This document shows positions 4,688 through 62,347 of a stretch of DNA of 64,000 nt, one piece after another. Origin of the DNA: a virus; the IMG/VR virus record IMGVR_UViG_3300045988_182490. The stretch is one strand, 5' to 3'. Position 1 is the first letter of the stretch; each line of letters begins with the position of its first letter. The notes beneath the pieces were generated by a model that saw only the letters and a program-made list of their open reading frames with translations, was not told where the DNA came from and did no database searches. A program made the position numbers and the translations under genes.

Positions 4688-4761
4688 GCATCAGTGCCGC
4701 AACTGGCAGACGGGACCGGCTCAAACCCGGTTTTCTATGGGTTCGAATCCCTTCTGGTGCA
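4688..4761 (+). tRNA. tRNA with Leu anticodon (CAA) but short variable arm
   Basis: paralog of 4529 tRNA; stem ACCGG/CCGGT perfect, loop CTCAAAC. Confidence 0.5.
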
Positions 4762-4776
4762 TTTGTTTTAAAATTT

Positions 4777-4848
4777 TGGTTTGTAGCTCAATGGTAGAGC
4801 AACCGGCTGTTAACCGGTAGGTTGTGGGTTCAAGTCCCACCATTCCAG
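4777..4848 (+). tRNA. tRNA-Asn (GUU)
   Basis: TAGCTCAATGGTAGAGC D-arm, loop CTGTTAA, GTGGGTTCAAGTCCCAC; acceptor has 2 mismatches. Confidence 0.55.
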
Positions 4849-4852
4849 CTAT

Positions 4853-4936
4853 GGAGGCTGTGGCCGAGTTGGTTAGGCAGCAGATTGTGGCTCTGCGGAA
4901 GTAATTCCTACGTGGGTTCGAGCCCCACTGGTCTCC
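4853..4936 (+). tRNA. type-II tRNA (Ser-like D-arm TGGCCGAGTTGGTTAGGC), anticodon reads GUG; identity uncertain
   Basis: long variable arm with GGAA/TTCC hairpin, GTGGGTTCGAGCCCCAC T-arm. Confidence 0.45.
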
Positions 4937-4950
4937 CTGAAATCAAATAT

Positions 4951-5022
4951 GCCGCTGTAGCACAATGGCAATGCACCTGCTTTGTAATCAGGGGATTAAG
5001 GGTTCGAGTCCCTTCTGCGGCT
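4951..5022 (+). tRNA. tRNA-Thr (UGU)
   Basis: loop TTTGTAA, AAGGGTTCGAGTCCCTT. Confidence 0.6.
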
Positions 5023-5024
5023 TA

Positions 5025-5095
5025 TAGGCGGTTAGGCTAGAGGTAAACCGTGCGGTTCTGAACCGTTAGACACCCGTTCGATTCGGTTACTGTCT
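5025..5095 (+). tRNA. tRNA-like, possibly Gln (CUG); acceptor stem not resolved
   Basis: loop TTCTGAA between CGG/CCG, T-loop TTCGATT; could not pair a clean acceptor. Confidence 0.3.
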
Positions 5096-5100
5096 GCTAT

Positions 5101-5172
5101 GTCCCCATAGCTTAATGGATAGAGTTTTCGGCTACGAACCGAAAGATTGGCGTTCGAGTCGCCATGAGGACA
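5101..5172 (+). tRNA. tRNA-Arg (ACG)
   Basis: stem TTCGG/CCGAA, loop CTACGAA, TGGCGTTCGAGTCGCCA. Confidence 0.7.
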
Positions 5173-5178
5173 TTAAAC

Positions 5179-5252
5179 GCCTGTGTAGCTCCAATTGGCA
5201 GAGCGTCTATCTCGTAAGTAGAGGGTTGCAAGTTCAAATCTTGTCACAGGCT
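5179..5252 (+). tRNA. tRNA-Thr (CGU)
   Basis: perfect acceptor GCCTGTG/CACAGGC, loop CTCGTAA, GCAAGTTCAAATCTTGT. Confidence 0.7.
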
Positions 5253-5265
5253 TTATAAAAATATT

Positions 5266-5335
5266 GTGGTGTATTTCAATGGTAGAAAGACCGTCTGATG
5301 AGCGGTTAATATCAGTTCAATTCTGTTCACCACAA
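5266..5335 (+). tRNA. tRNA-Ile (GAU)
   Basis: acceptor TGTGGTG/CACCACA, loop CTGATGA, T-loop TTCAATT. Confidence 0.55.
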
Positions 5336-5339
5336 CTAT

Positions 5340-5412
5340 GCTGATATAGCTCAACTGGGAGAGCACATGCCTTACAAGCATGGGGTTACAGGTTCGAGTC
5401 CTGTTATCAGCA
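5340..5412 (+). tRNA. tRNA-Val (UAC)
   Basis: TAGCTCAACTGGGAGAGC D-arm, loop CTTACAA, ACAGGTTCGAGTCCTGT. Confidence 0.8.
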
Positions 5413-5415
5413 TTT

Positions 5416-5490
5416 GCGGGTGAGTGGAACGGATTTACCATGCAGGGTTCATAACCCTTGCGATACCAGGCTTCGACTCCTGGACCCGCT
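5416..5490 (+). tRNA. tRNA-Met (CAU)
   Basis: loop TTCATAA, T-loop TTCGACT. Confidence 0.55.
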
Positions 5491-5492
5491 AC

Positions 5493-5564
5493 TCCAGGGT
5501 AGTATAGCGGCGAGTACGGCCGGTTCATGCCCGGTAGACCCGAGTTCGATTCTCGGCCTTGGAA
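5493..5564 (+). tRNA. tRNA-Met/Ile2 (CAU), second CAU tRNA
   Basis: stem GCCGG/CCGGT, loop TTCATGC, CCGAGTTCGATTCTCGG. Confidence 0.6.
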
Positions 5565-5645
5565 TCAAAAAATATTGATAAATGAGGAGAAAACAATCAT
5601 GAAACGAAAACAGTTATATAAGCGATTATCAAAGTTATAATGTAT

Positions 5646-5729
5646 GCATCCGTCGCCTAATTGGTATGGCACCAGACTTTTAATCTGGCGGAATTACTTT
5701 CCATGCGAGTTCGAGTCTCGTCGGGTGCA
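5646..5729 (+). tRNA. type-II (long-arm) tRNA whose anticodon reads UUU; identity uncertain (Leu-like body)
   Basis: stem CCAGA/TCTGG, loop CTTTTAA, 17-nt variable arm with GGAA/TTCC hairpin, GCGAGTTCGAGTCTCGT. Confidence 0.45.
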
Positions 5730-5751
5730 CTGACACTGTATGTGTATCCGC

Positions 5752-5824
5752 GGGTATGTAACTCAAGTGGCAGAGTAGCGGCCTCTTAAGCCGAAGGTTG
5801 CAGGATCATGGCCTGTCATGCCCA
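5752..5824 (+). tRNA. tRNA-Lys (CUU)-like with degenerate T-loop
   Basis: acceptor GGGTATG/CATGCCC, TAACTCAAGTGGCAGAGTA D-arm, loop CTCTTAA; T-loop ATCATGG. Confidence 0.45.
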
Positions 5825-5828
5825 TTAT

Positions 5829-5902
5829 GCGCCAGTAGCCCAATCGGCAGAGGCACAGGGTTTAAGCCCCTGTCAGTATCGGTTCGAATCCGATTTGGCG
5901 TA
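5829..5902 (+). tRNA. tRNA with anticodon UAA (Leu-type) and short variable arm
   Basis: perfect anticodon stem CAGGG/CCCTG, loop TTTAAGC, ATCGGTTCGAATCCGAT. Confidence 0.5.
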
Positions 5903-6221
5903 CTTTTTCAATATATTCAACAACAATTTATGAAAATTGTAAGAAAGGATAACCAATATGCGTAACACAAACATATGTAAAAGACAATCCAATAGTTCAT
6001 GGTCAGAGAGTAGACATAATAAGAAGATGTACTGCTTTATTTGTTGATGCAATTTTTTTGCATAACAATATTTGGCATTAGTTATTTTAGTAACAGCATC
6101 TTCTGATAAAAACATTATCGAAGGATGCTGTTTTTTGTATATAAAATTTCTGCATGAAAATTTATTAAAATCATTCATATTAATAATAAAAATAAAAAGT
6201 GCATTTTTTATAATTTTATAT

Positions 6222-6295
6222 GGGCATATAGTTTAATGGTTTAGAATACGAGATTCCAAATCTCGAAGATGTGGGTTCGAATCCTACTGTGCCTG
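6222..6295 (+). tRNA. tRNA-Trp (CCA)
   Basis: stem CGAGA/TCTCG, loop TTCCAAA, GTGGGTTCGAATCCTAC. Confidence 0.7.
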
Positions 6296-6325
6296 TTATA
6301 AGTCAATATTTAATAGACAGAAGGG

Positions 6326-6844
6326 ATGGTCGTAATGACAAATAATAATTGGATATCTCCAACATACGGACATTTAATTTTGGAAGAAATCCCTCAATAT
6401 ATCCGTGAATATTACAATAAAATGAAACAATATGATACAAATATACGAATTACGATTGGTACAGACTCTCAAAATTTCAACTATACAAAAGAAGTAAATG
6501 TCATTGCTGTTATCTGCGAGGGACATGGAGGCATATTCTTCTATAAAATCAATAATAGAGACCGTATTCTGGATGTAAGGACAAAATTGCAGATGGAAAC
6601 CGGAGACTCTTTGGAAATAGCAGATAAGCTGATTCATTTGTTAGAAGCAGAAGAGTACGAAGAAGTCTTTCTAAATACTACTTTTTCTATCCATATTGAC
6701 GCAGGATATTCTGAAAAAGGGAAAACCAAAGATTTGATACCTGAACTTGTCGGATGGGTAAAAGGAAGTATTTCAAATTGCGAAGTATATGTAAAACCAG
6801 ACAGCTACGTAGCATCTGGAATCGCTGATAAAATATCAAAATAA
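6326..6844 (+). CDS. YkuK/DUF458 family RNase H-like protein
   Basis: 172 aa; ITIGTDSQ motif and overall pattern of DUF458; embedded inside tRNA array. Confidence 0.5.
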   Translation: MVVMTNNNWISPTYGHLILEEIPQYIREYYNKMKQYDTNIRITIGTDSQNFNYTKEVNVIAVICEGHGGIFFYKINNRDRILDVRTKLQMETGDSLEIADKLIHLLEAEEYEEVFLNTTFSIHIDAGYSEKGKTKDLIPELVGWVKGSISNCEVYVKPDSYVASGIADKISK

Positions 6845-6867
6845 CAGGGGGTTCAAAAGCCCCAAAT

Positions 6868-6958
6868 GGAGCGGTGCCTCAATTGGTACAGGACCCGGTT
6901 GGAAGCCGGGCATGTCGTGTCAATCCACGCTTTGAGGGTTCAAGTCCCTCCCGTTCCG
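6868..6958 (+). tRNA. tRNA-Ser (GGA)
   Basis: stem CCCGG/CCGGG, loop TTGGAAG, long variable arm, GAGGGTTCAAGTCCCTC. Confidence 0.65.
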
Positions 6959-6963
6959 CTTTT

Positions 6964-7055
6964 GCTGTGATGGCTCAACTGGTACAGCACTGGTCTTGAA
7001 AACCGGCATGTCGGGTGAGATTCCCGCTTTCAGGGTTCGAATCCCTGTCACAGCG
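6964..7055 (+). tRNA. tRNA-Ser (UGA)
   Basis: perfect acceptor GCTGTGA/TCACAGC, loop CTTGAAA, long variable arm, CAGGGTTCGAATCCCTG. Confidence 0.75.
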
Positions 7056-7059
7056 CTAT

Positions 7060-7133
7060 GCCTCCGTAGTCTAATGGTTAGTGACGTCAGCTTCTCACGC
7101 TGAAGATGCGGGGTTCAAGTCCCCTCGGAGGTT
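7060..7133 (+). tRNA. tRNA-Glu (CUC)
   Basis: stem TCAGC/GCTGA, loop TTCTCAC, GGGGTTCAAGTCCCC. Confidence 0.6.
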
Positions 7134-7138
7134 CTTAT

Positions 7139-7212
7139 ACGGGCGTAGTCTAATTGGACAAAACAACGGTCTTCTAAATCGTACCTTGCGGGTTCGAGTC
7201 CCGTCGTCCGTA
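7139..7212 (+). tRNA. tRNA-Arg (UCU)
   Basis: loop CTTCTAA, GCGGGTTCGAGTCCCGT, acceptor ACGGGCG/CGTCCGT. Confidence 0.7.
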
Positions 7213-7219
7213 GTATTAT

Positions 7220-7295
7220 GGCATCGTGGTCGAGTGGTCTAAGGCGCCTGTCTGCAAAACAGGTTTTACCGTGGGTTCGAATCCCACCGATGTCT
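7220..7295 (+). tRNA. tRNA-Cys (GCA)
   Basis: stem CCTGT/ACAGG, loop CTGCAAA, GTGGGTTCGAATCCCAC. Confidence 0.65.
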
Positions 7296-7443
7296 TTGCA
7301 TTTAAGCTGTGCGAAGCAGATTAGTCACCTGTTTCTATTCAGTGTATATGCAAAAAGCCCGTGCTAAACGGTATTTCAGTCGAAATTGACTAACGGCTGC
7401 GGTATTCGTGATAAACCTGCCAATCTGCGGGGCACGGGAGTCT

Positions 7444-7534
7444 GCCAGTGTGGCTCAATTGGTACAGCACCTGCTTCGAACACAGGCAAGCCGGCATTTA
7501 TGTCGACGTACAGGTTCAAGTCCTGTCACTGGCG
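7444..7534 (+). tRNA. tRNA-Ser (CGA)
   Basis: perfect acceptor GCCAGTG/CACTGGC, loop TTCGAAC, long variable arm, ACAGGTTCAAGTCCTGT. Confidence 0.65.
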
Positions 7535-7540
7535 TTTTTA

Positions 7541-7609
7541 GTCCATTAGCATAGCGGTTAATGCACTGGGCCTTGACCCGGGGACTGCGGTTCGAATCCG
7601 CAATGGGCC
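7541..7609 (+). tRNA. tRNA, possibly Gln (UUG); short
   Basis: TGCGGTTCGAATCCGCA T-arm, acceptor GTCCATT/AATGGGC, anticodon region CCTTGAC. Confidence 0.4.
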
Positions 7610-7621
7610 GTTTATATTTTT

Positions 7622-7713
7622 TGCCGTGGTGGCTCAAATGGTAAAGCAGCGGATTGCTAATCCGCCATCTCGGAGTAAAATCCGGTTTCAGGGTTCGAGT
7701 CCCTGTCACGGCG
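7622..7713 (+). tRNA. tRNA-Ser (GCU)
   Basis: stem GCGGA/TCCGC, loop TTGCTAA, long variable arm, CAGGGTTCGAGTCCCTG. Confidence 0.7.
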
Positions 7714-7718
7714 TTTAT

Positions 7719-14545: not shown

Positions 14546-14591
14546 AAAATGGAGCCTGCTATAGCATAAAATTAGCAGCAAAATTAAAGGA

Positions 14592-15407
14592 ATGGTACTG
14601 GAGACTGGAACTTTCAATCCACACCTGATGAAGGATCCTATGTTAGCATATCGGCCCTGGGGTTATCAGAAAGGACCGAATTATGGTTTCAGCAATACAA
14701 AGGCCATGGTCCTGAACAGAGACAACTATACCTGCCAGCATTGCAAAGGCAAGCATAAGGATTCTCATCTGGAGGTACATCATATCGTATATCGGAGTCA
14801 GGGAGGCGGCGATGATCCGGAGAATCTGATCACGCTTTGTCATACCTGCCACACCGGAGTTCATAAAGGTATCATAAAACTTCGGATTTCAGGTAAGAAG
14901 AAGGGATTCCTGAAGTATGCGACCCAGATGAACAGCATCCGCTGCCAGCTTCTTAAAAGCTATCCGGATGCCACAGAGACTTTCGGCTATATCACAAAAG
15001 AGAACCGGCAGCTTCTCGGAGTACCAAAAGAGCATTATTATGATGCCTGTACGATTGCATCCGGTGGAAATCCATTTGTTGTAAATACTCTGTTGTACCG
15101 GAAGAAATGTATTCCGGCCGGTGATTTTCAGCAGACAAAAGGTGTCCGTTCGGAGCAGAAAATAACTACCGGCAAGATCCTTGGCTTTCGGAAGTTTGAT
15201 AAAGTAAGCTATCTGGGATCTGCATATTTCATCAAAGGCCGTATGTCATCAGGATACGTAATACTTATGGACCTGGATGGTAACAAAACAGATTTTTCAC
15301 AGATGCCGAAGGGCTACAAAACGCCTAAGCTTTCGAATCTGACCAGACGGGAGGCAAGATCCACATGGATGACTATACCCGTGGCGGTCACTCAAAATAC
15401 AGCCTGA
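14592..15407 (+). CDS. IscB-derived HNH nuclease, N-terminally truncated (HNH + RuvC-III + C-terminal domain only)
   Basis: 271 aa; CQHCKGKHKD ... VHHIVYRSQGGGDDPENLITLCHTCH and KEHYYDACTIASGGNP, GFRKFDKVSYLGSAYFIKG align with the C-terminal 60% of the IscB ORFs at 45362/58613. Confidence 0.6.
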   Translation: MVLETGTFNPHLMKDPMLAYRPWGYQKGPNYGFSNTKAMVLNRDNYTCQHCKGKHKDSHLEVHHIVYRSQGGGDDPENLITLCHTCHTGVHKGIIKLRISGKKKGFLKYATQMNSIRCQLLKSYPDATETFGYITKENRQLLGVPKEHYYDACTIASGGNPFVVNTLLYRKKCIPAGDFQQTKGVRSEQKITTGKILGFRKFDKVSYLGSAYFIKGRMSSGYVILMDLDGNKTDFSQMPKGYKTPKLSNLTRREARSTWMTIPVAVTQNTA

Positions 15408-43959: not shown

Positions 43960-44319
43960 ATGATACATCTCGAAAACGGGCATATTTATGAACTCACGAG
44001 TGATTTCGATATTTATTCATGTGATGACGGAAAGATAACAGTAAAAGCCGGTGCCGTTTTTGTAGCTGAGCGTGGAAATAATAGAATAATAAATGGCAGA
44101 GAATTGCCTTTTTACAATATATATATTTTACGGTCAAAAAGTTATCTTCCTTATTCATCCGCCTGTATATTTCAATCAATCAGTGGTATAACAATTAAAG
44201 AAATCACGATGGATATGTTGGATAAAGAAGCATTTGCAGGGTATCTACCATGGAATATCCGATTCGGAACAAATAGCAGTATCAGAGCAATGCAAAAAAT
44301 GATGGAGGAACGAAAATGA
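43960..44319 (+). CDS. hypothetical protein
   Basis: 119 aa. Confidence 0.45.
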   Translation: MIHLENGHIYELTSDFDIYSCDDGKITVKAGAVFVAERGNNRIINGRELPFYNIYILRSKSYLPYSSACIFQSISGITIKEITMDMLDKEAFAGYLPWNIRFGTNSSIRAMQKMMEERK

Positions 44320-45101
44320 TCTATATTACAGGAGATATTCATGGAGATCCCACAAGATTTTCCAAAGAAGCGTTTCCAGAACAATCAAAAATGACAAAAG
44401 AGGATTACGTTATTGTCTGTGGAGATTTTGGACTCGTATGGGATCAAATGGAATCAAGAACAGAAGAATATTGGCTTAACTGGCTTCAGAATAAGCCGTT
44501 CACTACATTATTCGTGGATGGTAATCATGAAAATCATGATAGATTGGATGCTATGCCAGTATCTGAATGGAATGGAGGAAATGTTCACTTTGTAAGACCT
44601 AATGTTATTCATTTAATGCGAGGCCAGGTATTTACTCTTTGTGAAAAAACATTCTTTACGTTTGGAGGAGCATCTTCCCATGATATCCAGGATGGTATTT
44701 TGGATCCTGATAATTATCAGTACGGAATTAAAGATCCTCTATTCAAAGAAGATAAAAAGAAGTTAGATGATAGAAGAGCCATGTACCGTATCAAGAGAGT
44801 ATCCTGGTGGGAACGTGAGCTTCCTAGCGAACAGGAGATGTCTGAAGGAATCGAAAATCTTAAGAAATACGGAAATAAAGTGGACTATATTATTTCCCAT
44901 AGTCCGTGCACCAGTGATATGTTCCTAATGGGCGGTAAAGGCATTTACCAGCCGGATATTATTTCGAACTATCTGGAAGAAGTAAGAGCCACAACGGAGT
45001 ATAAGAAATGGTATTTTGGACATATGCATATCAATAAGCAGGTGTCTATGCAGGATATTTGCTTGTATGAGCAAATTTTATTTGTCCCTACTTGTCAATA
45101 A
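44316..45101 (+). CDS. calcineurin-like metallophosphoesterase
   Basis: 261 aa; GDIHGD, GDFGLVWD, GNHENHD motifs; stop codon lies within first bases of IscB element copy 1. Confidence 0.8.
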   Translation: MIYITGDIHGDPTRFSKEAFPEQSKMTKEDYVIVCGDFGLVWDQMESRTEEYWLNWLQNKPFTTLFVDGNHENHDRLDAMPVSEWNGGNVHFVRPNVIHLMRGQVFTLCEKTFFTFGGASSHDIQDGILDPDNYQYGIKDPLFKEDKKKLDDRRAMYRIKRVSWWERELPSEQEMSEGIENLKKYGNKVDYIISHSPCTSDMFLMGGKGIYQPDIISNYLEEVRATTEYKKWYFGHMHINKQVSMQDICLYEQILFVPTCQ

Positions 45102-45361
45102 CCCATCACTAAAGTGACGGGCTTGTAAAAGCCCGATATTGACTAGCCTAAGTGTTTCGAACACTACGTTACGAGAGAATATATAGTCACCTGCGGATGT
45201 AATACCTAGTCTGCAGCTCTGAGGTCCGTGATTAAACAGTCCTGTTGGATAGGGACAGTGTTGCGGATATCCAAAACCTCTCATTAACATTGGCGAAGGT
45301 ATCATTACAGAGGAATGACCTCTGATTTATGTGATTTGGTTCACAGAAAGGAGTGCCTGTT
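45100..45361 (+). ncRNA. putative omega RNA (IscB guide scaffold), copy 1
   Basis: about 260-nt non-coding, GC-enriched, hairpin-rich region between IS left end and iscB start, canonical omega-RNA position. Confidence 0.6.
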
Positions 45362-46633
45362 ATGGTATATGTTCTTAACATTGACGGACAGCCGCTTATG
45401 CCCACTGACAGGCATGGAAAGGTCCGGCATCTTTTGAAAGACGGCCGGGCGGAAGTAGTAAAGCGCTGTCCGTTTACCATACGACTGTTGTATGACAGCA
45501 CGCACTATACACAGGATATCGTATTAGGTGTGGATGCCGGCAGCAAACATATCGGTTTGTCGGCCACCACAGAAACAAAAGAACTCTATGCTTCCGATGT
45601 GGAGCTAAGAAATGACATTGTGGATCTGATTTCCACACGCAGACAGAACCGCCGGTCACGGCGTAATCGTAAGATTCGTTATCGGAAGGCTCGTTTTCAG
45701 AACAGGGTATCCGGAAAGAAAAACTGGTTGGCTCCCAGTATCCGGCAGAAAGTCGATACACATATGACCGTGGTATCCAGAGTATGCATGATACTTCCGG
45801 TTACAAAGATCATCGTGGAGACAGCTTCTTTTGATATCCAGAAGATCAAGGATCCGGATATCAGTGGTACTGGTTATCAGCAGGGAGAGCAGCTCGATTT
45901 CTGGAACGTCCGGGAGTATGTATTATCCCGGGATGGTCATACCTGCCAGTGCTGCAAAGGCAAATCCAAGGATCCGGTGCTCAATGTACATCATATCGAG
46001 AGCCGAAAGACTGGTGGCGATGCTCCCAATAACCTGATCACCTTATGTGAGACATGCCATAAGAGTTATCACTCAGGTGCGGTGCAGCTGCCGAAAGCCA
46101 TCCATCGTGGCATGAGATTCAAGGATGCTGCATTCATGGGAGTCATGCGATGGAATTTCTATAACAAACTGAAGGAAATCTATGAGCTACAGGGCATTGA
46201 GATACGTATGACATTTGGGTATCTCACAAAGAATACCCGTATCCGTCATCATCTGCCAAAGGAGCATTACATAGATGCCAGGTGCATCAGCGGTCATCCG
46301 GAAGCAATACCCAGCAACGAAGTTTTCTATCAGAAGAAGGTTCGCTGCCATAACCGCCAGATACATAAGAACACTATCCTTAAAGGTGGTATCCGAAAAC
46401 GAAATCAGGCCGGCTATCTGGTAAAAGGCTTCCGGCTGTTCGATAAAGTAGCTTACAAAGGCAGAGAGTACTTCATTTTTGGACGCAGGCAAAGTGGATT
46501 CTTCGATTTGCGGAATCTGTCCGGATGCAAAGTAAACAAAGGCAGTCTCAGTTACCGGAAGATCGGATTTCTGGAACCGAGACAATACTATTTATGTGAA
46601 AGGAGAGTAATGGACACCCAGGGCTGTGCTTAA
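45362..46633 (+). CDS. iscB: IscB RNA-guided nuclease (PLMP-RuvC-BH-HNH-RuvC)
   Basis: 423 aa; PLMP (GQPLMP), RuvC-I GVDAGSKHIGLS, Arg-rich bridge helix, RuvC-II IIVETASFD, HNH CQCCKG...HHI...NLITLCETCH, RuvC-III EHYIDARC. Confidence 0.9.
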   Translation: MVYVLNIDGQPLMPTDRHGKVRHLLKDGRAEVVKRCPFTIRLLYDSTHYTQDIVLGVDAGSKHIGLSATTETKELYASDVELRNDIVDLISTRRQNRRSRRNRKIRYRKARFQNRVSGKKNWLAPSIRQKVDTHMTVVSRVCMILPVTKIIVETASFDIQKIKDPDISGTGYQQGEQLDFWNVREYVLSRDGHTCQCCKGKSKDPVLNVHHIESRKTGGDAPNNLITLCETCHKSYHSGAVQLPKAIHRGMRFKDAAFMGVMRWNFYNKLKEIYELQGIEIRMTFGYLTKNTRIRHHLPKEHYIDARCISGHPEAIPSNEVFYQKKVRCHNRQIHKNTILKGGIRKRNQAGYLVKGFRLFDKVAYKGREYFIFGRRQSGFFDLRNLSGCKVNKGSLSYRKIGFLEPRQYYLCERRVMDTQGCA

Positions 46634-46981
46634 CAGCACTCCTCCCACGACTAAAGTCACGGGTGCCCGTGCTAAGCGAATTTATGAAATATTACCTATA
46701 ATAACGAAGAGGGACAGATAGCTGTTCCTCTTTGTTATTATCTAAAAGGGATAGTATATTGGTACTTTCGATGTAAACGGGACAATAATCTGTGCCGGTT
46801 GCATAAAGGGATAATATACTATTCCTTTAAATTTATTAATTAAAGGAACATAATTCTATCACTTTCAATCATATAAGGGATATAATATTATCCTTTTAAC
46901 ATATAGCTTATAATTTTTAGAAATGATCTTTTTGTCTCTTTATCTGTCATATTAATGGTAGAAAAACAAACGGAGGTGCTT

Positions 46982-47770
46982 ATGTTAAAAGAATTACGCA
47001 GCAGATCCTTTACAAATGGAAAGGTATATGCATTAGAAACAGAGGATGGATATCCATTGGAAGTCACCGATACTTTTTTACCAAATTATACAAAGGACGC
47101 AATCAATAACAATGAAAACACACTGAAGACATATGAAGTTGGAGACCGGACCAATCGCTGGATGATTGGTGTTAGTTGTATGAGCGGCTGTCCTGTGCAT
47201 TGTAAGTTCTGCGCAACCGGAAAACTTAAAAGATGGCGTTGCTTAACAGCCGAAGAGATTGTAGCTCAGGTGGAATTTATTATCAAACAGAATCCGGAAT
47301 ATCGATTTGAAGATGCTTGGGAACATAAAATCAATTACACCAGAATGGGAGAGCCGTTCCTAAATATAGAAGAAGTAAAAAAAGCTATTCAGATGATTGA
47401 CGAAAAGTATCCAGGAACGCATCATTATATCTCTACAGTTGGATTACAGGGAAGCGATTTTAGCTGGATTAAAGACAATATTACGTTACAAGTTAGCTTA
47501 CATAGTCTTGATGAGGAAAGACGACACAATTTAATTCCTATCAGTAATCTGATGTCTATCGAAGAACTGGGCCAGATTCGGACAAATAGTAATTTAAAAA
47601 CAACTGTCAATATGACATTAGTTGACTATGAAGATTTTGACATCAATATCTTGACCAAATATTTTGATCCTAGATATTTTTTTATAAAATTAAGTCCTAT
47701 TAACGAGAACGAGATTTCTGAGAAAAATCATATGGGATCTGGTATTATCGAGAAAAGAAATTTGATGTAA
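46982..47770 (+). CDS. RlmN/Cfr-like radical SAM methyltransferase, N-terminal and core part (split gene)
   Basis: 263 aa; SCMSGCPVHCKFCATG (CxxxCxxC in RlmN-specific context), MGEPFLN, ISTVGL, VSLHSLDEERRHNLIPI align with RlmN residues about 60-320. Confidence 0.65.
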   Translation: MLKELRSRSFTNGKVYALETEDGYPLEVTDTFLPNYTKDAINNNENTLKTYEVGDRTNRWMIGVSCMSGCPVHCKFCATGKLKRWRCLTAEEIVAQVEFIIKQNPEYRFEDAWEHKINYTRMGEPFLNIEEVKKAIQMIDEKYPGTHHYISTVGLQGSDFSWIKDNITLQVSLHSLDEERRHNLIPISNLMSIEELGQIRTNSNLKTTVNMTLVDYEDFDINILTKYFDPRYFFIKLSPINENEISEKNHMGSGIIEKRNLM

Positions 47771-47791
47771 TACGCAAAGGAGGAAAAACTC

Positions 47792-47917
47792 ATGGAGAAA
47801 ATCGCAAATCAGTTAAGGGCAGCAGGTTATGATTACGCAGTTGCCATTGCGACTGAAGCAGAAATTACTGCAAAAGCTGCATGCGGCCAGTTAGCCATTA
47901 TTACTGAGGATAAGTAA
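47792..47917 (+). CDS. RlmN-like C-terminal fragment carrying conserved ACGQL cysteine motif (separate micro-ORF)
   Basis: 41 aa with own AAAGGAGG RBS; LRAAGYDYAVAIATEAEITAKAACGQLAI parallels RlmN ...[27 protein letters not shown]. Confidence 0.55.
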   Translation: MEKIANQLRAAGYDYAVAIATEAEITAKAACGQLAIITEDK

Positions 47918-47968
47918 TCGTTAACAGGAAATGCCCCACTCAGGGGCATTTTCTATGGAGGAAAAAAT

Positions 47969-48769
47969 ATGTTACATAATCATAGAGTGTTCCGGTATCG
48001 AATTATCACGAATTTTCATTGTAATCAGAACTGTTATTTTTGCTTTCAGCCGGAAAAGCGAGAAAAGATATTAGATATTGAAAAAATGGAAGATACTATG
48101 AAAAAGGTAGGTATGTTGGAAAGAGCTACCATTATGGGCGGAGAGAGTTTACTTTTACCGAATATCGTAGATTATTTCAAAGTAGTGCATAAATATGTAA
48201 ATACAATTTGCCTGGTAACAAACGGTACGAAGTTAACTGAAGATTTGACAAAAGCTTTAGTAGAAAATGGACTGGAAGAAATGGCAATCTCTATATCTTC
48301 TAAAGAACAATATAAGGCCAGAAGAGAACAGATACTGATTGCAAAAAAGTACGTGCCTAATTTACGCATCAATCTTCCAAAATCTTGGGAGTCTACTGGG
48401 GAAAAGTTATATGAACTTGTTGATATGATTTTAGCAGATGATATCGGCGTGGTTGTATGTGAAGATCTTATGGGCAGATACAATTTAAACTATAAAAACA
48501 GCTATGAAGATCTGCTTTATGGTATGGGCGCTAAATTATTACGCAGTGATGGACATAATTTCTTCACGTTTGAGTGGAAGGGAAAAGAATTTGGGTTGTT
48601 TGGGTATCACGGAGATAAAAACGCATCCGCAGATACGGAAGAAGCCGGATACGAAAAGACAGATATTATCATTGCACCGAATTGTCATTCTGATGAACGG
48701 TATTCCCATAAAGTCTATTCTGTGTGGGAAGATTACTGCCATGATATAGGAAACCACGACTTGGCATAG
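47969..48769 (+). CDS. radical SAM domain protein (MoaA/PqqE-like core, no SPASM extension)
   Basis: 266 aa; ITNFHCNQNCYFCF (CxxxCxxC), MGGESLLL, LVTNGTKL. Confidence 0.65.
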   Translation: MLHNHRVFRYRIITNFHCNQNCYFCFQPEKREKILDIEKMEDTMKKVGMLERATIMGGESLLLPNIVDYFKVVHKYVNTICLVTNGTKLTEDLTKALVENGLEEMAISISSKEQYKARREQILIAKKYVPNLRINLPKSWESTGEKLYELVDMILADDIGVVVCEDLMGRYNLNYKNSYEDLLYGMGAKLLRSDGHNFFTFEWKGKEFGLFGYHGDKNASADTEEAGYEKTDIIIAPNCHSDERYSHKVYSVWEDYCHDIGNHDLA

Positions 48770-48778
48770 GAGTGCAGT

Positions 48779-49213
48779 ATGCTTAAAATTGATTTTGGCA
48801 GCGGATATAATCCATATCCTGGATATAAAACATGTGATATTACTCAAGGTCCCTATTTAGATTATGTATACAATACAGAGACAAACGAAATTATTGGATT
48901 GCAAGAAGGATCCGTTGATGAATTTCGCCTTAAAAACGTACTACATCATGCTGATATACCGAAGGTGATTCAGTGTCTCCACAGATATTTAAAATCAGGC
49001 GGAATTCTGCAAATTATTGAACCAAGGACGGAGTATTACGAACAAAACCGGTGTCTGGATCTGTTTTGGTATCGTTACATTTATCCGAGATATGAAATAG
49101 CAATTCCTCCCAAAAGGAGAGTTGACTACTTAAAAATATGCGAGGCATATTTTAAAATCTCATCACATCAAAATGCAGATGTTTATGACGTTTATTTTTT
49201 TGTTAACCGATAA
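48779..49213 (+). CDS. small class I SAM-dependent methyltransferase-fold protein
   Basis: 144 aa; motif I KIDFGSGYNP, motif III LKSGGILQI. Confidence 0.5.
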   Translation: MLKIDFGSGYNPYPGYKTCDITQGPYLDYVYNTETNEIIGLQEGSVDEFRLKNVLHHADIPKVIQCLHRYLKSGGILQIIEPRTEYYEQNRCLDLFWYRYIYPRYEIAIPPKRRVDYLKICEAYFKISSHQNADVYDVYFFVNR

Positions 49214-49248
49214 TAATTAGCAGAACCTTATATAAGGAGTAAATATAT

Positions 49249-49974
49249 ATGCTATCTTTTTTACAAAAATTAATTAATAGTAAAAATAATACAGTAATAT
49301 CTTCAAAACAAGATGCTGTCACTGCAAATAGTGACGACTTAATTCAGGAAAAGCCAATACCTAACTGCAAAAATGCTTTCCATATATTAATCATTACAGA
49401 TACGCATTGTCATATGAGAAAAGAACAAATAGAAGACTTTCTCTCTGACATCGAAGATAAAATTGATATTGTCTTTATATTAGGTGATATGAGCGAAAGA
49501 GATATGTTCGTTGCAAAAGAAATAGCTAAAAAATATAAAGCTCTCATCTATGGAATTCTTGGTAATCATGATTATGATGGACAATTAGAAGAAATGGATA
49601 TTCCAAATTTTGAAGGAAAGATGATAGAATTTAATGGAGTTACGTTTACAGGAATGCACGGAAGCTTTAAATATAAGAACTCTGACGCACCTATGTTAAC
49701 TAACGAAGAGAGTATAGAATTAGCAAAAATACTACCAACTTGTGATATTTTTCTTACTCACGATAAAGCTAGAACAAATAATGAAGAAAATTCGCATAGT
49801 GGATTAGAAGGCATAACTCAGTATATTTTAGATAAAAAACCAGAATATCATATTCATGGACATCTTCATGAAAATATGAACGAAAATATTGGCGGAATTA
49901 GTTCTTTGGGATTTTGTAGATATGCATATATCGAAGTATCTAAAAATGGATTAAAAATCAAAAAGATTTTTTAA
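49249..49974 (+). CDS. calcineurin-like metallophosphoesterase
   Basis: 241 aa; ILIITDTHCH, ILGDMSE, ILGNHDYD, GMHGS motifs. Confidence 0.75.
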   Translation: MLSFLQKLINSKNNTVISSKQDAVTANSDDLIQEKPIPNCKNAFHILIITDTHCHMRKEQIEDFLSDIEDKIDIVFILGDMSERDMFVAKEIAKKYKALIYGILGNHDYDGQLEEMDIPNFEGKMIEFNGVTFTGMHGSFKYKNSDAPMLTNEESIELAKILPTCDIFLTHDKARTNNEENSHSGLEGITQYILDKKPEYHIHGHLHENMNENIGGISSLGFCRYAYIEVSKNGLKIKKIF

Positions 49975-50087
49975 AGATAGTTCACTGAAATAAAGTACGA
50001 CAAAAAGCTCCTGTTACAAAGAGGTAAAATCAGATAAAGAACAATAAATCATTAAAAACATGGACGTAAAAATTTCTGTGCAGAAAT

Positions 50088-50115
50088 TTGCAATAATTTT
50101 CAAAGCTGTTATAAT
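50088..50115 (+). promoter_or_regulatory. sigma70 promoter (TTGCAA-16-TATAAT) driving sRNA copy B
   Basis: consensus -35/-10, TGTTATAAT extended -10. Confidence 0.6.
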
Positions 50116-50121
50116 AGCATT

Positions 50122-50203
50122 ATCAGATGAAGAACACATCTGATTTCCCCTTTTATCTTTGATGAAGATCCCCGGAACTTTCCCCTCCGGGGATCATTTT
50201 TTA
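50122..50203 (+). ncRNA. small RNA, family copy B
   Basis: 5' hairpin TCAGATG-AAGAACA-CATCTGA, core CCCTTTTATCTTTGATGAAGATC, terminator ATCCCCGGAACTTTCCCCTCCGGGGAT + T6. Confidence 0.55.
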
Positions 50204-50361
50204 TACATATATTTTCTTCCATATTATTTGTATAAACAAAGGAATTCAAAATAAAAACCAATATACTCAAAATCAAGATATTTTACGGTGAATTTTGTGC
50301 AGAAATTTACAGTGTTTTTAAATTTAATCTATCATATTAATATCAGAAAGGTGGTATAATT

Positions 50362-51201: not shown

Positions 51202-51549
51202 ATGAATTTTGTTATTCCGAGCGAAAGACATCAAAAGTCATTAGAATACGCTGTTAATAAAGCATCTGCTTCACCGATTTTTCCATATATAAGAAATATT
51301 GTTTTATTTGGTAGCTGTGCAAGAGGAGATTTTCATTGGTCCAGTGATGTAGATTTGCTATTTATTATGGATGATTCGTTTAATGATCACACCGAATTAA
51401 AGAGCGATTTGTTTACGTTACGGGGGAATATAAGTCCAATTGATTCTGAATGCCCGGAAGTCGATGCTAAATTCTATTCAGAGTCAAATTGGAAAAATCA
51501 AAACAGTTTCTTTTTGCAGAACGCTAGAAAGGATGGGATTGTGTTATGA
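51202..51549 (+). CDS. minimal nucleotidyltransferase (MNT/Pol-beta superfamily)
   Basis: 115 aa; LFGSCARGDFHWSSDVDLLF motif. Confidence 0.75.
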   Translation: MNFVIPSERHQKSLEYAVNKASASPIFPYIRNIVLFGSCARGDFHWSSDVDLLFIMDDSFNDHTELKSDLFTLRGNISPIDSECPEVDAKFYSESNWKNQNSFFLQNARKDGIVL

Positions 51550-51773
51550 TAAATACAAATAATGATATCAATTACTTCAGAAGGCTCTATAGATGATACA
51601 ATCGCGAATGCCAGGCAAAAGACTGCCGAAATTAACACTCAGCAATCATTGCCAATACAAAAGCATGATTCTAGCATACATTAAAAATATATACTTCACA
51701 TTTAATTTAAATGGAATTTTTTATCTTGCATATTATAACGGTTATCCGTTATAATATATATGAGGTGATTTTT

Positions 51774-52340
51774 ATGCTTAAAACATTATGTAATTTAAAA
51801 GAAATAAGCGTATATAGATGCTCTAAAGACACAAATATTCCGTATTCGACATTAAGTGACATTGCAAATCATAAAACGGACCCCAATAATATCAACGCAC
51901 TTATACTAAAACGATTGGCTGAATATTTTTCTTTATCTATGGATGATTTATATACAATTTTAAATCTAAAACAGCGGGTTCCTTTTTCTTCATTTAGAAG
52001 CGAAATGTGTCACAAGCTTCACAGAAATGGCGATATAGAAATGCTATCATTTATTAGGAAAAATAATTATATTCCCATATTATGGAATATAAGATGGTAT
52101 CCGGAAGCCCTATATACATTGGCCATGTTCGATGAAATAACAGAAAAAAATAACGCAAGCTTATGTATGGATTATGAACAATATAGGAAGACAAAAATGA
52201 AAGAGCTGATCGTCTCTCCTGATATTATTTTAATGGAGAAGCTAACAGGCAAAGACGATGAGCGTCAAAAACTGATTGCAAATGCCAATCCATATTTTTT
52301 ACAGTACAACATATTGGAAGGAGATATTTATGCCGAGTGA
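51774..52340 (+). CDS. XRE-type HTH protein, putative antitoxin of NTase pair
   Basis: 188 aa; N-terminal HTH ISVYRCSKDTNIPYSTLSDIANHK; stop overlaps start of downstream NTase gene. Confidence 0.45.
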   Translation: MLKTLCNLKEISVYRCSKDTNIPYSTLSDIANHKTDPNNINALILKRLAEYFSLSMDDLYTILNLKQRVPFSSFRSEMCHKLHRNGDIEMLSFIRKNNYIPILWNIRWYPEALYTLAMFDEITEKNNASLCMDYEQYRKTKMKELIVSPDIILMEKLTGKDDERQKLIANANPYFLQYNILEGDIYAE

Positions 52341-53148
52341 AAATGATATACAACTTGACCGTGAACTAATGCTTACGTGTTTAAAAGAAGTAGCAAAAGA
52401 ATATCACAAACAGTTTAAAGGAGGAAATATTGAAATTATTATAGTCGGCGGAGCATCATTGGCTATGAATTATAATTTTCGACCGGGAACGACAGATATA
52501 GACGCTTTTATTGTAGCTAGGGAAGATTTAAAAGACATCATCAATAAAATCGGTGACAAATACAATTTACCAAATGGTTGGCTAAATCAGGATTTTAAAT
52601 ATACAGATTCTTACAGCCCTAACATCCGTCAATATAGTAAATATTATGCTTCTTATTCTCATTGTATGGAAGTTCGGACGATAAAAGACGAATATCTTAT
52701 AGCTATGAAATTAGCTTCTTATCGTCCTTATAAGCATGATCGATCTGATATTATTGGCATTATTATTGAAAATGATCGACAGGGCAGATCAATCACTTTC
52801 GACAAGGTAGATAAAGCTGTCCGGGATTTGTATGGAAACTGGAACAAAATATCTGTTGAGGCAAAGCTTTCGCTTAAATCGCTCCTTGCTGCACATAGTC
52901 TTGAAACTGTTTACGATGAGATAACCAAACAGGAGCAGATAAGTAAAAATACTTTGATAAACTTTGAAGAAAAATATCCAGGGATTCTTTCTGAAGACAA
53001 TGTTTCCGATATAGTAAACTGTCAAACTCCTAAAGAAGATGTTTTATCCGTTGATGATTTAATAGCTAAAGCAACAGAAAAAGTTCAACAGTCAAATTCC
53101 AGAAATGTGCATACTCAATCCCTGAGTATCGACGATTTCATTTTATAA
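52330..53148 (+). CDS. AbiEii/MenT-like nucleotidyltransferase (DUF1814-like) putative toxin
   Basis: 272 aa; IIIVGGASLAMNYNFRPGTTDIDAF resembles AbiEii KGGTAL...RFSEDIDF core. Confidence 0.5.
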   Translation: MPSENDIQLDRELMLTCLKEVAKEYHKQFKGGNIEIIIVGGASLAMNYNFRPGTTDIDAFIVAREDLKDIINKIGDKYNLPNGWLNQDFKYTDSYSPNIRQYSKYYASYSHCMEVRTIKDEYLIAMKLASYRPYKHDRSDIIGIIIENDRQGRSITFDKVDKAVRDLYGNWNKISVEAKLSLKSLLAAHSLETVYDEITKQEQISKNTLINFEEKYPGILSEDNVSDIVNCQTPKEDVLSVDDLIAKATEKVQQSNSRNVHTQSLSIDDFIL

Positions 53149-58236: not shown

Positions 58237-58354
58237 TTTAGGCAGCTTTGGCTGCCTTTTTTATATAAAACCGTGAAAAAGCAGACTGTATAATTGGTAT
58301 AGGATTCCATAAAAATAATGTCATATTAATTATATATAATATAAGTCAATAACC

Positions 58355-58612
58355 CATCACTAAAGTGACGGGTTTGTAAAAGCCCGATATTGACTAGCCT
58401 AAGTGTTTCGAACACTACGTTACGAGAGAATATATAGTCACCTGCGGATGTAATACCTAGTCTGCAGCTCTGAGGTCCGTGATTAAACAGTCCTGTTGGA
58501 TAGGGACAGTGTTGCGGATATCCAAAACCTCTCATTAACATTGGCGAAGGTATCATTACAGAGGAATGACCTCTGATTTATGTGATTTGGTTCACAGAAA
58601 GGAGTGCCTGTT
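58355..58612 (+). ncRNA. putative omega RNA, copy 2
   Basis: same sequence as copy 1 scaffold. Confidence 0.6.
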
Positions 58613-59884
58613 ATGGTATATGTTCTTAACATTGACGGACAGCCGCTTATGCCCACTGACAGGCATGGAAAGGTCCGGCATCTTTTGAAGGACGGCCGGG
58701 CGGAAGTAGTAAAGTGCTGTCCGTTTACCATACGACTGTTGTATGACAGCACGCACTATACGCAGGATATCGTATTAGGCGTGGATGCCGGCAGCAAACA
58801 TATCGGTTTGTCGGGCACCACGGAAACAAAAGAACTCTATGCTTCCGATGTAGAGCTCAGAAATGACATTGTGGATCTTATTTCCACACGCAGACAGAAC
58901 CGCAGGTTCCGTCGTAATCGTAAGACACGGTACCGGAAAGCCCGATTCCTGAACCGGTTATCCGATAAGAAGGACTGGTTGGCTCCCAGTATCCGGCAGA
59001 AAGTCGATACCCACATGACCGTGGTATCCAGAGTATGTAAGATACTTCCGGTCACAAAGATCATCGTGGAGACAGCATCCTTTGATATCCAGAAGATCAA
59101 GGATCCGGATATCAGTGGTACTGGTTATCAACATGGTGAGCAGCTCGATTTCTGGAACGTCCGGGAGTATGTATTATTCCGGGATGGACATACCTGCCAG
59201 TGCTGCAAAGGCAAATCCAAGGATCCGGTACTCAATGTACATCATATCGAGAGCCGTAAGACTGGCGGCGATGCTCCCAATAACCTGATCACCTTATGTG
59301 AGACCTGTCATAAGGGTTATCACTCAGGTGCGGTGCAGCTGCCGAAAGCCATCCATCGTGGCATGAGATTCAAGGATGCTGCATTCATGGGAGTCATGCG
59401 ATGGAATTTCTATAACAAACTGAAGGAAATCTATGAGCTACAGGGCATTGAGATACGTATGACATTTGGGTATCTCACAAAGAATACCCGTATCCGTCAT
59501 CATCTGCCAAAGGAGCATTACATAGATGCCAGGTGCATCAGCGGTCATCCGGAAGCAATACCCAGCAACGAAGTTTTCTATCAGAAGAAGGTTCGCTGCC
59601 ATAACCGCCAGATACATAAGAACACTATCCTTAAAGGTGGTATCCGAAAACGAAATCAGGCCGGCTATCTGGTAAAAGGCTTCCGGCTGTTCGATAAAGT
59701 AGCTTACAAAGGCAGAGAGTACTTCATTTTTGGACGCAGGCAAAGTGGATTCTTCGATTTGCGGAATCTGTCCGGATGCAAAGTAAACAAAGGCAGTCTC
59801 AGTTACCGGAAGATCGGATTTCTGGAACCTAGACAATACTATTTATGTGAAAGGAGAGTAATGGACACCCAGGGCTATGCTTAA
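58613..59884 (+). CDS. iscB: IscB RNA-guided nuclease, copy 2
   Basis: 423 aa, all IscB motifs intact. Confidence 0.9.
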   Translation: MVYVLNIDGQPLMPTDRHGKVRHLLKDGRAEVVKCCPFTIRLLYDSTHYTQDIVLGVDAGSKHIGLSGTTETKELYASDVELRNDIVDLISTRRQNRRFRRNRKTRYRKARFLNRLSDKKDWLAPSIRQKVDTHMTVVSRVCKILPVTKIIVETASFDIQKIKDPDISGTGYQHGEQLDFWNVREYVLFRDGHTCQCCKGKSKDPVLNVHHIESRKTGGDAPNNLITLCETCHKGYHSGAVQLPKAIHRGMRFKDAAFMGVMRWNFYNKLKEIYELQGIEIRMTFGYLTKNTRIRHHLPKEHYIDARCISGHPEAIPSNEVFYQKKVRCHNRQIHKNTILKGGIRKRNQAGYLVKGFRLFDKVAYKGREYFIFGRRQSGFFDLRNLSGCKVNKGSLSYRKIGFLEPRQYYLCERRVMDTQGYA

Positions 59885-60284
59885 CCGCACTCCTCCCACG
59901 ACTAAAGTCACGGGTGTCCGTGCTAAGCGAATTTATGAATATAGCCACGTATCAAACAACGCCAGAACTGGAAAGAAAAACTCAATTCATCAAACAATAA
60001 GTAACAAGTAAATAAGATTGATTATATTGTTTTCTGCAACCAAAACTTTTATACACTTTTTCTGACATAATATAGTTGAAGAGAAAACTGGAGAAACTTT
60101 TTTACGGATTTAAGATAAAAAATCCGTTTGACCTTATAGATTTTACTTTTATAACTCCGGAATGTGACCGGAGATAACATAAACCAACCTTTTTCTTAAG
60201 ATACAGTCCAACCGGATGGACAAAATGTACTGCTTCATCCGGTTACGGAAGCAGTTACAATAATTAATAAAGAGGGAAAATGCA

Positions 60285-61873: not shown

Positions 61874-62347
61874 ATGCAGCTAAAAGAAGAAAAAAGAGAT
61901 CTATTTTCAGTTAATAACGAAAAAGATATGTGGTATGTACAGTGTATCTCGGCAGATTTTGCCTGTGGTAAGGGAATTGCTCTGGAGTTCAATAAAAGAG
62001 GAGATGTTAAAAATCTCTTAATGAAAAATTATAAAAAGAATATGTGGAACGGCTATGGATATTGTCTTCCAACTTGTTCTTTACCGGAGACAAATGAAGA
62101 TAGAGAATATTTCAAAGTATTCAATCTGGTAACAAAGGCTAAATATTATATGAAACCATCTGAAAGAACCATACGAACTGCATTAATGTCATTACATGAC
62201 ATGGTTAAAGCATATGGAATTAAAAAAATGGCCATGCCACAGATTGGGTGTGGGTTGGACCGAATGGATTGGAATAATGTTAGAGAAATAATCCAACACA
62301 TTTTCCAGGATATTCAAGATCTTGAAATTTTAGTATGTAGAAAATAG
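61874..62347 (+). CDS. TARG1/DarG-type macrodomain protein (ADP-ribose glycohydrolase family)
   Basis: 157 aa; YVQCISADFACGKGIALEFNKR and MAMPQIGCGLDRMDWNNVREIIQHIF align closely with human TARG1 [21 protein letters not shown] and [26 protein letters not shown]. Confidence 0.75.
   Translation: MQLKEEKRDLFSVNNEKDMWYVQCISADFACGKGIALEFNKRGDVKNLLMKNYKKNMWNGYGYCLPTCSLPETNEDREYFKVFNLVTKAKYYMKPSERTIRTALMSLHDMVKAYGIKKMAMPQIGCGLDRMDWNNVREIIQHIFQDIQDLEILVCRK

Follow-up and report, generated by a model that had tools for sequence, protein, structure and literature searches.

RlmN and Cfr are class A methyl synthases, which methylate adenine at C2 or C8 in A2503 of 23S rRNA and A37 of tRNA. They are the textbook case of covalent catalysis by two cysteines, and Cfr also matters in the clinic as a resistance enzyme. 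In RlmN the pre-methylated Cys355 gives rise to a thiomethylene radical that adds to adenine, and Cys118 then resolves the covalent adduct (PMC5130265). When Cys118 is changed to alanine no m2A is formed and the crosslink is trapped (PMC5130265). Here we describe a group of genes in a 64,000-nucleotide stretch of putatively viral DNA (the window; IMG/VR virus record IMGVR_UViG_3300045988_182490) in which the core of an RlmN/Cfr-like radical S-adenosylmethionine (SAM) enzyme, g1, and a C-terminal tail with the predicted methyl-carrier cysteine, g2, are separate genes. They are followed by genes for a second radical SAM enzyme (g3), a small methyltransferase-like protein (g4) and a metallophosphoesterase (g5). 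The initial annotation of the window had described these five co-directional genes as one compact operon. We found open reading frames (ORFs) at all of the positions that it gave, and profile searches agreed with its domain calls of an RlmN-like core, an RlmN C-terminal piece, a radical SAM protein without a SPASM domain, a class I methyltransferase fold and a phosphoesterase.

The C-terminal tail of an RlmN/Cfr-like enzyme is encoded by a separate gene

We found that g1 matches the RlmN model TIGR00048 over profile positions 101-244 of 355 (E 9e-22; 77.5 bits against a cut-off of 290), the Cfr models at about 1e-13 and the RlmN chains of the PDB at 4.6e-12. The CxxxCxxC motif, here CPVHCKFC, is invariant in g1, and the GEP and downstream motifs are also kept. 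Since the match begins at profile position 101, the N-terminal accessory domain of RlmN is absent from g1. The C-terminal cysteine tail is also absent, and a family-specific insert of about 25 residues lies ahead of the cluster loop. A search for relatives of g1 returned 2275 proteins, the best 120 of which are all 257-281 residues long. The protein is about 70% identical across many sources, and a g1 of the split type is carried by 266 viral contigs in IMG/VR.

The next gene, g2, encodes an acidic peptide (…GYDYAVAIATEAEITAKAACGQLAIITEDK) whose C-terminal end, AACGQLAIITEDK, carries in AACGQL its single cysteine, at the methyl-carrier position. On its own g2 had no match in the NCBIfam or PDB searches. 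However, when g1 and g2 were fused in silico the RlmN match grew from the g1 segment to profile positions 101-342 of 355 (82.2 bits), and the fusion reached position 337/338 of the Cfr models. The joined sequences follow full-length RlmN/Cfr colinearly, the cysteine motif included. The methyl-carrier loop, the equivalent of that around E. coli Cys355, is kept in trans in 18 of 20 distinct g2 sequences. The peptide is 70-80% identical across phyla over its entire length, and it adjoins g1 in 78 of the 79 IMG/VR loci that were seeded with g1.

The same pair is present in four isolated phages, in all of which both proteins are annotated as 'hypothetical protein'. Kehishuvirus tikkala, a crAss-like phage of Bacteroides, encodes proteins of 262 and 43 residues, and Moorella phage MTATph1 proteins of 274 and 40 residues. 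In Pectobacterium phage Arno162, g2 lies several genes downstream of g1. In Vibrio phage D479 the ORF after g1 (locus L010, 4315-4596) consists of two tandem g2 units (…AACGQMAILDEV… and …AACGQMAILEDA). A further arrangement was found in a 315-residue protein (P0295), in which g2 precedes g1 within one polypeptide, so that the order of the parts is circularly permuted with respect to RlmN. Two other observations concern the g1 family. A second split branch exists (KIGVSLxSGC…, about 256-284 residues), and in one 265-residue protein (P0338) g1 stops right after CKFC and is followed by an unrelated intein-like sequence that starts with CFVPGT.

Loss of the resolving cysteine accompanies the split

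The initial annotation had recognized the N-terminal part and the C-terminal piece of RlmN; what it had missed is that the split is family-wide and coupled to loss of the resolving cysteine. In HMMER alignments the glycine of 'MIGVS' in g1 falls on the column of RlmN Cys118. This column is Cys in PDB entry 6fz6 and Ala in 4pl1, a chain that we take to be the C118A variant. Among 213 sequences of the family 211 have Gly at this position. We then aligned a distant set, the 150 best 50%-identity representatives out of a library of 1.8 billion proteins. All 23 representatives with Gly at column 118 are without a C-terminal CGQ tail, while those with Cys mostly have an attached CGQ tail, like canonical RlmN/Cfr. 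Other residues also occur, with Ile, Val, Thr, Met or Asn at column 118 of P0357, P0361, P0377, P0395 and about 16 other unsplit representatives. Only three cysteines of g1 are invariant, all of them cluster ligands, and g2 contains just one cysteine, thus the g1:g2 pair holds no second thiol of its own.

Four genes co-occur in phages and bacteria

Loci that bear g3 were collected from the contigs of g3 homologues and from profile scans of GTDB genomes and IMG/VR, 87 in all. We found g1 in 83 of the 87, g4 in 83 and g2 in 81, and the exceptions are mostly contig ends or have the partner farther along the same contig. The loci belong to phages and to Firmicutes and Bacteroidales genomes, their sources being Clostridia, Bacilli, 'Tenericutes' metagenome-assembled genomes (MAGs), Prevotella, Segatella copri and many phage contigs. 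The gene order also varies: g1-g2-g3-g4 in the window, g1-g3-g4-g2 most commonly, and g2-x-g1-x-g3-g4 in one locus (L007). When the neighboring ORFs were clustered, these four were the only recurring families. As judged from gene content, g1 to g4 are shown to be a conserved four-protein module.

Conserved co-occurrence elsewhere, on which the module of the initial annotation depended, was therefore found for g1 to g4, at nearly every g3 locus. Since they co-occur across phages and bacteria in several gene orders, a dedicated multi-enzyme module is supported. The same does not hold for g5, which the initial annotation had counted as a member. No g5 homologue was found in about 90 related loci, and in close relatives its place after g4 or g2 is taken by a Thg1-like gene (L258) or an RNA ligase gene (L097). 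A unit of five genes was rejected, as g5 is never conserved; by this comparison g5 is a lineage-specific bystander next to the cassette.

Clustering of g1 at 85% identity gave 49 lineages. In 22 of these only g1 and g2 are present, g3 is also present in 18, and a third type of radical SAM enzyme (rSAM3, below) in 13. Because g1 and g2 so often stand alone while g3 is almost never found without them, g1+g2 are the core and g3+g4 a dependent accessory pair.

The partner proteins g3, g4 and rSAM3

MoaA is a GTP 3',8-cyclase, and viperin and pVip are NTP 3'-deoxy-3',4'-didehydro synthases. Structure prediction, proposed with the initial annotation as a check on g3 and g4, gave a MoaA-like fold for the former and a methyltransferase-like fold for the latter. 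The g3 model has a pLDDT of 93, and its closest Foldseek match is MoaA (TM 0.66). The lipid synthase Tes is also closer than viperin (TM 0.51), and SuiB, SkfB and PqqE are further structural neighbors. No SPASM domain was found in g3 by Pfam. In sequence, g3 resembles viperin and MoaA only over its N-terminal 100 residues or so, with scores 4-6 times below the curated cut-offs. The matches to viperin models cover residues 17-116 only (NF038283, 49.5 bits against 180; TIGR04278, 20.2 against 450), and the pVip matches of PADLOC likewise cover only the N-terminal half. PADLOC gave no defense-system assignment beyond these partial matches and a weak PDC-S10 match for g5. The viperin resemblance mentioned in the initial annotation is thus confined to a generic N-terminal half. 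We rejected viperin/pVip as an identity for g3, as it has no full-length match with the C-terminal nucleotide-binding extension and both MoaA and Tes are closer. MoaA itself was also rejected, since g3 does not combine a family-level score with a C-terminal three-cysteine cluster and GTP-binding tail.

More than 120 full-length homologues of g3 were found. Cys81 and Cys164 never vary and Cys257 hardly ever does, within a C-terminal half that is conserved in its own right, and by analogy with MoaA it is possible that these three hold an auxiliary cluster. Many homologues have a Cx11-12CxxC cluster loop, that is, an insert of 8 residues. Scanning viral contigs for close relatives with g3 as the single query returned nothing, and a profile was required. 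The isolated-phage collection contained no g3, save for weak matches to radical SAM proteins of Campylobacter phages.

The g4 protein matched phrog_5399, 'SAM-dependent methyltransferase', at 3e-23, and Methyltransf_11 at 20.2 bits, just below the cut-off of 21.2. IDFGSGY (motif I), Asp20 and NVLHH are invariant. The model (pLDDT 95) has a class I methyltransferase-like sheet in which the early Rossmann helices are absent, and it matched methyltransferase structures with a probability of 1.0 and TM 0.6-0.68, small SAM methyltransferases being nearest. g4 is always paired with g3, and the two genes overlap or abut.

In 13 of the 49 lineages a radical SAM protein of about 297 residues, rSAM3, is encoded, often between g1 and g2 or between a Nampt gene and g1 (loci L085, L091, L100, L104, L106, L107, L114, L148 and L151). 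It has extra conserved cysteines (C14, C167 and a CxC at 242/244 of alignment A5) and is related to g3 in the generic N-terminal half only. It is apparently an alternative to g3/g4. No NCBIfam family reached its cut-off for g1 to g4, for rSAM3 or for the other RlmN-like classes.

Genes for NAD salvage and RNA repair flank some cassettes

NAD salvage genes (Nampt, NMNAT-Nudix, PncB and NadE), verified with Pfam within the flanks, are the commonest recognizable neighbors and flank g1 in 16 of the 49 lineages. In five loci of three lineages (L112, L115 and L118/L121/L122) Nampt immediately precedes g1, at a distance of about 0-13 nt. In one group of bacterial MAGs, PncA-PncB-Nudix precede g1-g3-g4-g2 and NadE-NadK-NadD-CinA-NrtR follow. 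Genes of ADP-ribose processing (NADAR, ADP-ribosylglycohydrolase) and Tpt1 are also near some cassettes, and the RNA-repair genes RNA ligase, Thg1-like and Tpt1 flank the cassette in 5 of the 49 lineages. Other bacterial MAGs have the four genes by themselves, amid unrelated neighbors. An unsplit short phage relative (L011) lies inside a cluster of tRNA genes. The window itself contains no NAD salvage gene, only a weak macro-like match at 61967-62314. An SPFH/Band 7 gene was also observed within one or two genes of g1+g2, in Kehishuvirus (L001, 4281-5498) and in six related viral contigs (L125, L133, L134, L146, L147 and L153), two g1 lineages in all.

Organization of the locus and its flanks

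The features of the locus are listed in Table 1. An alternative start for g1 at 46955 is present. We prefer 46982, as in the initial annotation, because a GGAGG box lies 5 nt upstream and because the length and N-terminus (MLKE…) are those of the homologues. The intergenic gaps are 21 nt (g1/g2), 51 nt (g2/g3), 9 nt (g3/g4) and 35 nt (g4/g5), and g2 is preceded by a Shine-Dalgarno box of its own and has a separate start codon. The entire window is coded on one strand, therefore the common direction of the five genes alone says little.

Table 1. Positions of the cassette genes and of other features in the window
Feature	Position	Strand	Basis or description
tRNA gene array	3552-7714		33 tRNA genes in window
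IscB-like ORF fragment	14583-15365		diverged, 37% identity
IscB element	45094-46688	+	HEARO/omega RNA 45094-45308 and 426-residue RRXRR-HNH ORF
Three imperfectly palindromic AAGGGATAnTATA boxes	46746-46887	+	between IscB element end and g1; spacing 60-69 nt
g1, predicted catalytic core of split class A (RlmN/Cfr-type) radical SAM enzyme, 262 residues	46982-47770	+	NCBIfam and PDB matches
g2, acidic peptide, 41 residues	47792-47917	+	detached RlmN/Cfr C-terminal strand and loop
12-bp GC-rich hairpin, then UUUUCU	47926-47954	+	between g2 and g3; -21.8 kcal/mol, z -5.26
g3, radical SAM enzyme of MoaA/viperin/twitch structural clade, 266 residues	47969-48769	+	profile and predicted structure
g4, minimal class I SAM-methyltransferase-like protein, 144 residues	48779-49213	+	PHROG and predicted structure
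g5, calcineurin-like metallophosphoesterase	49249-49974	+	Pfam Metallophos, 47.5 bits (cut-off 21.5)
Candidate small RNA, about 88 nt	50118-50205		three hairpins; -29.7 kcal/mol, z -5.6
Terminator 3' of cassette region	50180-50193
Second IscB copy	58352-59939		96.8% identical to first; each about 1.59 kb

The initial annotation had also placed a promoter box at 46943 and had described a single tight operon. A consensus promoter scan of the region gave 34 matches where 30.9 were expected, which is the chance level, and none of these is at 46943. We did find matches to AAGGGATAnTATA, 5 in the window against 0.68 expected, four of them within 46746-46887. The palindromic boxes occur in the window only upstream of g1, in a stretch outside the duplicated IscB element, and are a candidate operator or promoter region that would control g1 or the cassette. 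Between g2 and g3 we found a strong hairpin; none of 200 shuffled sequences folds as stably. A simple terminator scan had missed it because the stem extends into the T tract. It is a candidate terminator- or attenuator-like or RNA-stabilizing element, and the tight operon with a defined promoter was not upheld. A single transcript of the five genes is possible.

A second motif, GTGCAGAAATTT, occurs 8 times in the window against 0.66 expected, at 3481, 21499, 50078, 50297 and 61528 (minus strand) and at three sites with one mismatch. At 50078 and 50297, the sites whose flanks were read, a TATAAT-like box follows by about 17-18 nt. One copy lies 70 nt ahead of the 33-tRNA array and none directly upstream of the cassette. 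From its sequence context GTGCAGAAATTT looks like the element's own promoter motif. The candidate small RNA has a promoter-like site on one side (50087-50115) and the terminator on the other, and an Rfam search with it gave no match.

Two IscB elements had been noted on either side of the cassette, and both were found, the second 8.4 kb beyond g5. The first (PF14239, 4.9e-65, plus HNH; HEARO RNA RF02033, 142 bits, gathering score 83) is an insertion that separates the cassette from a metallophosphoesterase gene lying upstream (44316-45101). An IscB is missing from this position in the relative L099/L258, and a related IscB is present in another relative, from the Prevotella phage group (L078). 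The IscB element is context only and lies outside the module. Downstream of g5, at 51202-53148, are a minimal nucleotidyltransferase (NTP_transf_2), an HTH protein and a DUF6036 nucleotidyltransferase, which resemble toxin-antitoxin or defense-type pairs. Within the tRNA array ARAGORN reported one tRNA (7539-7611) with a two-base anticodon (tt) that it left undetermined. Large ORFs of the window match phage families for DNA methyltransferases and a transposase. No structural genes were seen in the window.

A proposed reaction and its alternatives

By analogy with RlmN, we propose with a probability of roughly 0.5 that the split core carries out a peptide-borne transfer of one carbon to adenine, with the g2 cysteine as carrier. 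The g2 cysteine would first be S-methylated by SAM, either through g1 as in RlmN or through g4. The peptide would then dock onto g1 by strand complementation, the 5'-deoxyadenosyl radical would take a hydrogen from the S-methyl group, and the thiomethylene radical would add to an sp2 carbon of adenine (C2 or C8). Because g1+g2 are without a second conserved thiol, release or processing of the adduct would need something in trans. The g2-CH2-adenine thioether might be released by a second g2, by a cellular thiol or by g3/g4. Alternatively, g3/g4 or rSAM3 might process it into something beyond a plain methyl group. The tandem g2 of D479 is a hint of a second g2 as resolver, and a detached tail would be an exchangeable, possibly consumable, co-substrate. 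The part of g4 is a guess: it may be a scaffold or the cysteine S-methylase for g2.

The initial annotation had suggested RNA or nucleotide modification or anti-defense chemistry. This general direction still holds, as it fits both the RlmN homology and the NAD-salvage and RNA-repair neighbors. From the gene neighborhood, our tentative first choice falls somewhat short of even odds: an adenine nucleotide of the NAD/ADP-ribose pool. We rate lower an RNA such as tRNA A37 or rRNA, to which homology points, and give a similar share to anything else. It is improbable, though worth stating, that the 41-residue g2 is a consumable reagent whose adduct is turned by g3/g4 or rSAM3 into a new C-substituent of adenine, e.g. 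a thiomethyl-type group after C-S cleavage and S-methylation. If so, phages would rewrite the adenine of NAD+/ADP-ribose-derived nucleotides or of tRNA and thus evade immunity that depletes NAD or targets RNA, which would be for small molecules what hypermodification is for DNA.

Several points weigh against peptide-borne transfer or its assignment to the NAD pool. RlmN and Cfr are only 25-35% identical to g1, with scores of 77-82 bits against 290, so that the chemistry is extrapolated, and the RlmN N-terminal domain is missing. Unsplit relatives of about 300-320 residues keep the CGQ tail yet have no Cys at column 118, and Cys118 may be dispensable in this branch for other reasons. If the resolving thiol is supplied in trans, as it could be, the pair would simply be a two-piece methyltransferase. 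One g2 homologue (L089, 9991-10101) has no CGQL (…AGAASIITEE); NADAR, NMNAT-Nudix and Nampt are present at that locus. In a 98% identical strain an in-frame deletion joins residues 1-186 of g3 to 39-241 of g5 and removes g4 (P0010, 378 residues), a hint that some strains can do without g3 and g4, and the roles proposed for these two proteins are guesses. The NAD link is missing in 33 of the 49 lineages, the window included. It is also one-sided, because in the reciprocal test g1 was a rare accessory, present in only 4-7 of 79 Nampt-seeded phage loci. Isoelectric points as a proxy for RNA binding were uninformative, ranging from 4.5 to 9.6 with acidic copies in the window. tRNA genes lie within the flanks of 24 of 179 loci, which is no enrichment.

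This last count bears equally on ordinary RNA methylation, an alternative that we consider rather doubtful but well ahead of those that follow. Here g1 and g2 would be the two subunits of an RlmN/Cfr enzyme forming m2A or m8A in tRNA (A37) or 23S rRNA of phage or host, the adduct would be resolved by a second g2 or a cellular thiol, and g3/g4 would install a separate RNA modification. Adenines in RNA are the substrates of every class A radical SAM methylase characterized so far (PMC5130265), the unsplit relative inside a tRNA cluster, the tRNA array of the window and the RNA-repair genes beside some cassettes are consistent with it, and the tandem g2 of D479 would fit a two-thiol scheme. However, it does not account for the strict coupling of the split to the loss of Cys118, g1 is without the accessory domain, and the commonest recognizable neighbor is NAD salvage.

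The layout of a short peptide gene with two radical SAM genes and a methyltransferase-like gene is also that of a ribosomal precursor peptide (RiPP) or cofactor precursor with its modifying enzymes, and the structural neighbors of g3 include the maturases SuiB, SkfB and PqqE. We think it quite unlikely that g2 is such a precursor, as it is colinear with the RlmN/Cfr tail and uniformly conserved, unlike leader/core peptides. There was no SPASM or RRE match and no conserved protease or exporter among the neighbors, and g1+g2 occur without g3/g4 in nearly half of the lineages and can be fused. Slimmer still is the chance that g3, independently of g1/g2, is a viperin-like producer of a ddh-nucleotide or of a comparable chain terminator or analogue that g5 trims. 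The sequence match is partial, as described above, MoaA and Tes are structurally closer, g3 is found almost only with g1, g2 and g4, and g5 is not conserved with g3. Finally, the single-strand coding of the window and the variable g5 and flanks would fit a frameshifted, decaying rlmN pseudogene beside unrelated same-strand accessory genes. This reading is refuted by the comparative data and we give it next to no weight. The g1/g2 split is maintained across hundreds of contigs and across unrelated phage isolates, therefore it is no pseudogene; g2 has its own translation signals, g1 is well conserved among many sources, and the four genes are found together in three gene orders.

Comparison with known systems

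Public annotations call members of this family 'hypothetical protein', 'radical SAM protein' or 'RlmN'. Our full-text literature searches turned up neither a split nor a phage RlmN-like enzyme, and nothing that joins 'NARP2' with 'radical SAM'. No curated family and no paper that we found describes the g1-g4 cassette, and the split RlmN-like variant appears to be new. Members of the family lie in NAD-salvage and RNA-repair islands, with which phages counter bacterial immunity. Phages of the human gut (crAss-like, Prevotella) and gut Firmicutes often carry the family, so that it is easy to obtain. With four small proteins and cultured phages that carry g1+g2 (Kehishuvirus and the Pectobacterium, Vibrio and Moorella phages), the question is directly testable.

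In about one third of the lineages g1+g2 lie inside or directly after phage NAD+ reconstitution operons of the 'NARP2' type (Nampt + NMNAT-Nudix). However, a split RlmN-like pair is no described component of these pathways, and most Nampt-bearing phages are without g1. The g4 protein resembles small class I methyltransferases (Methyltransf_11 type, PDB 3i9f, PHROG 5399) in its Rossmann-like core, its Gly-rich motif I loop and the acidic residue after strand 2, but it has only 144 residues and no helices between the first strands. In its fold and N-terminal half g3 is closest to MoaA and viperin, and like MoaA it has three further conserved cysteines that could hold an auxiliary cluster, whereas its C-terminal half is unrelated in sequence and it is obligatorily linked to g1, g2 and g4. 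As in PqqA/PqqE, MftA/MftC and the sactipeptide clusters, a separate peptide of about 40 residues would work with radical SAM partners. In contrast to those peptides, g2 is an enzyme segment with a predicted catalytic cysteine, and neither peptidase nor exporter accompanies it.

RlmN and Cfr themselves are the closest systems. The barrel, the CxxxCxxC and GEP motifs and the C-terminal xxCGQL loop are homologous, the loop being on g2 in the cassette. The differences are that the cassette enzyme is cut ahead of its final strand and loop (or permuted, as in P0295), that g1 has Gly in place of Cys118, no N-terminal domain, the insert of about 25 residues and sub-cut-off scores, and that a second radical SAM enzyme is often encoded alongside. 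Taken together, a methyl-carrier cysteine on a separate peptide of about 40 residues, a missing resolving cysteine and a frequent second radical SAM partner would imply a new way of finishing the RlmN/Cfr reaction or a new product.

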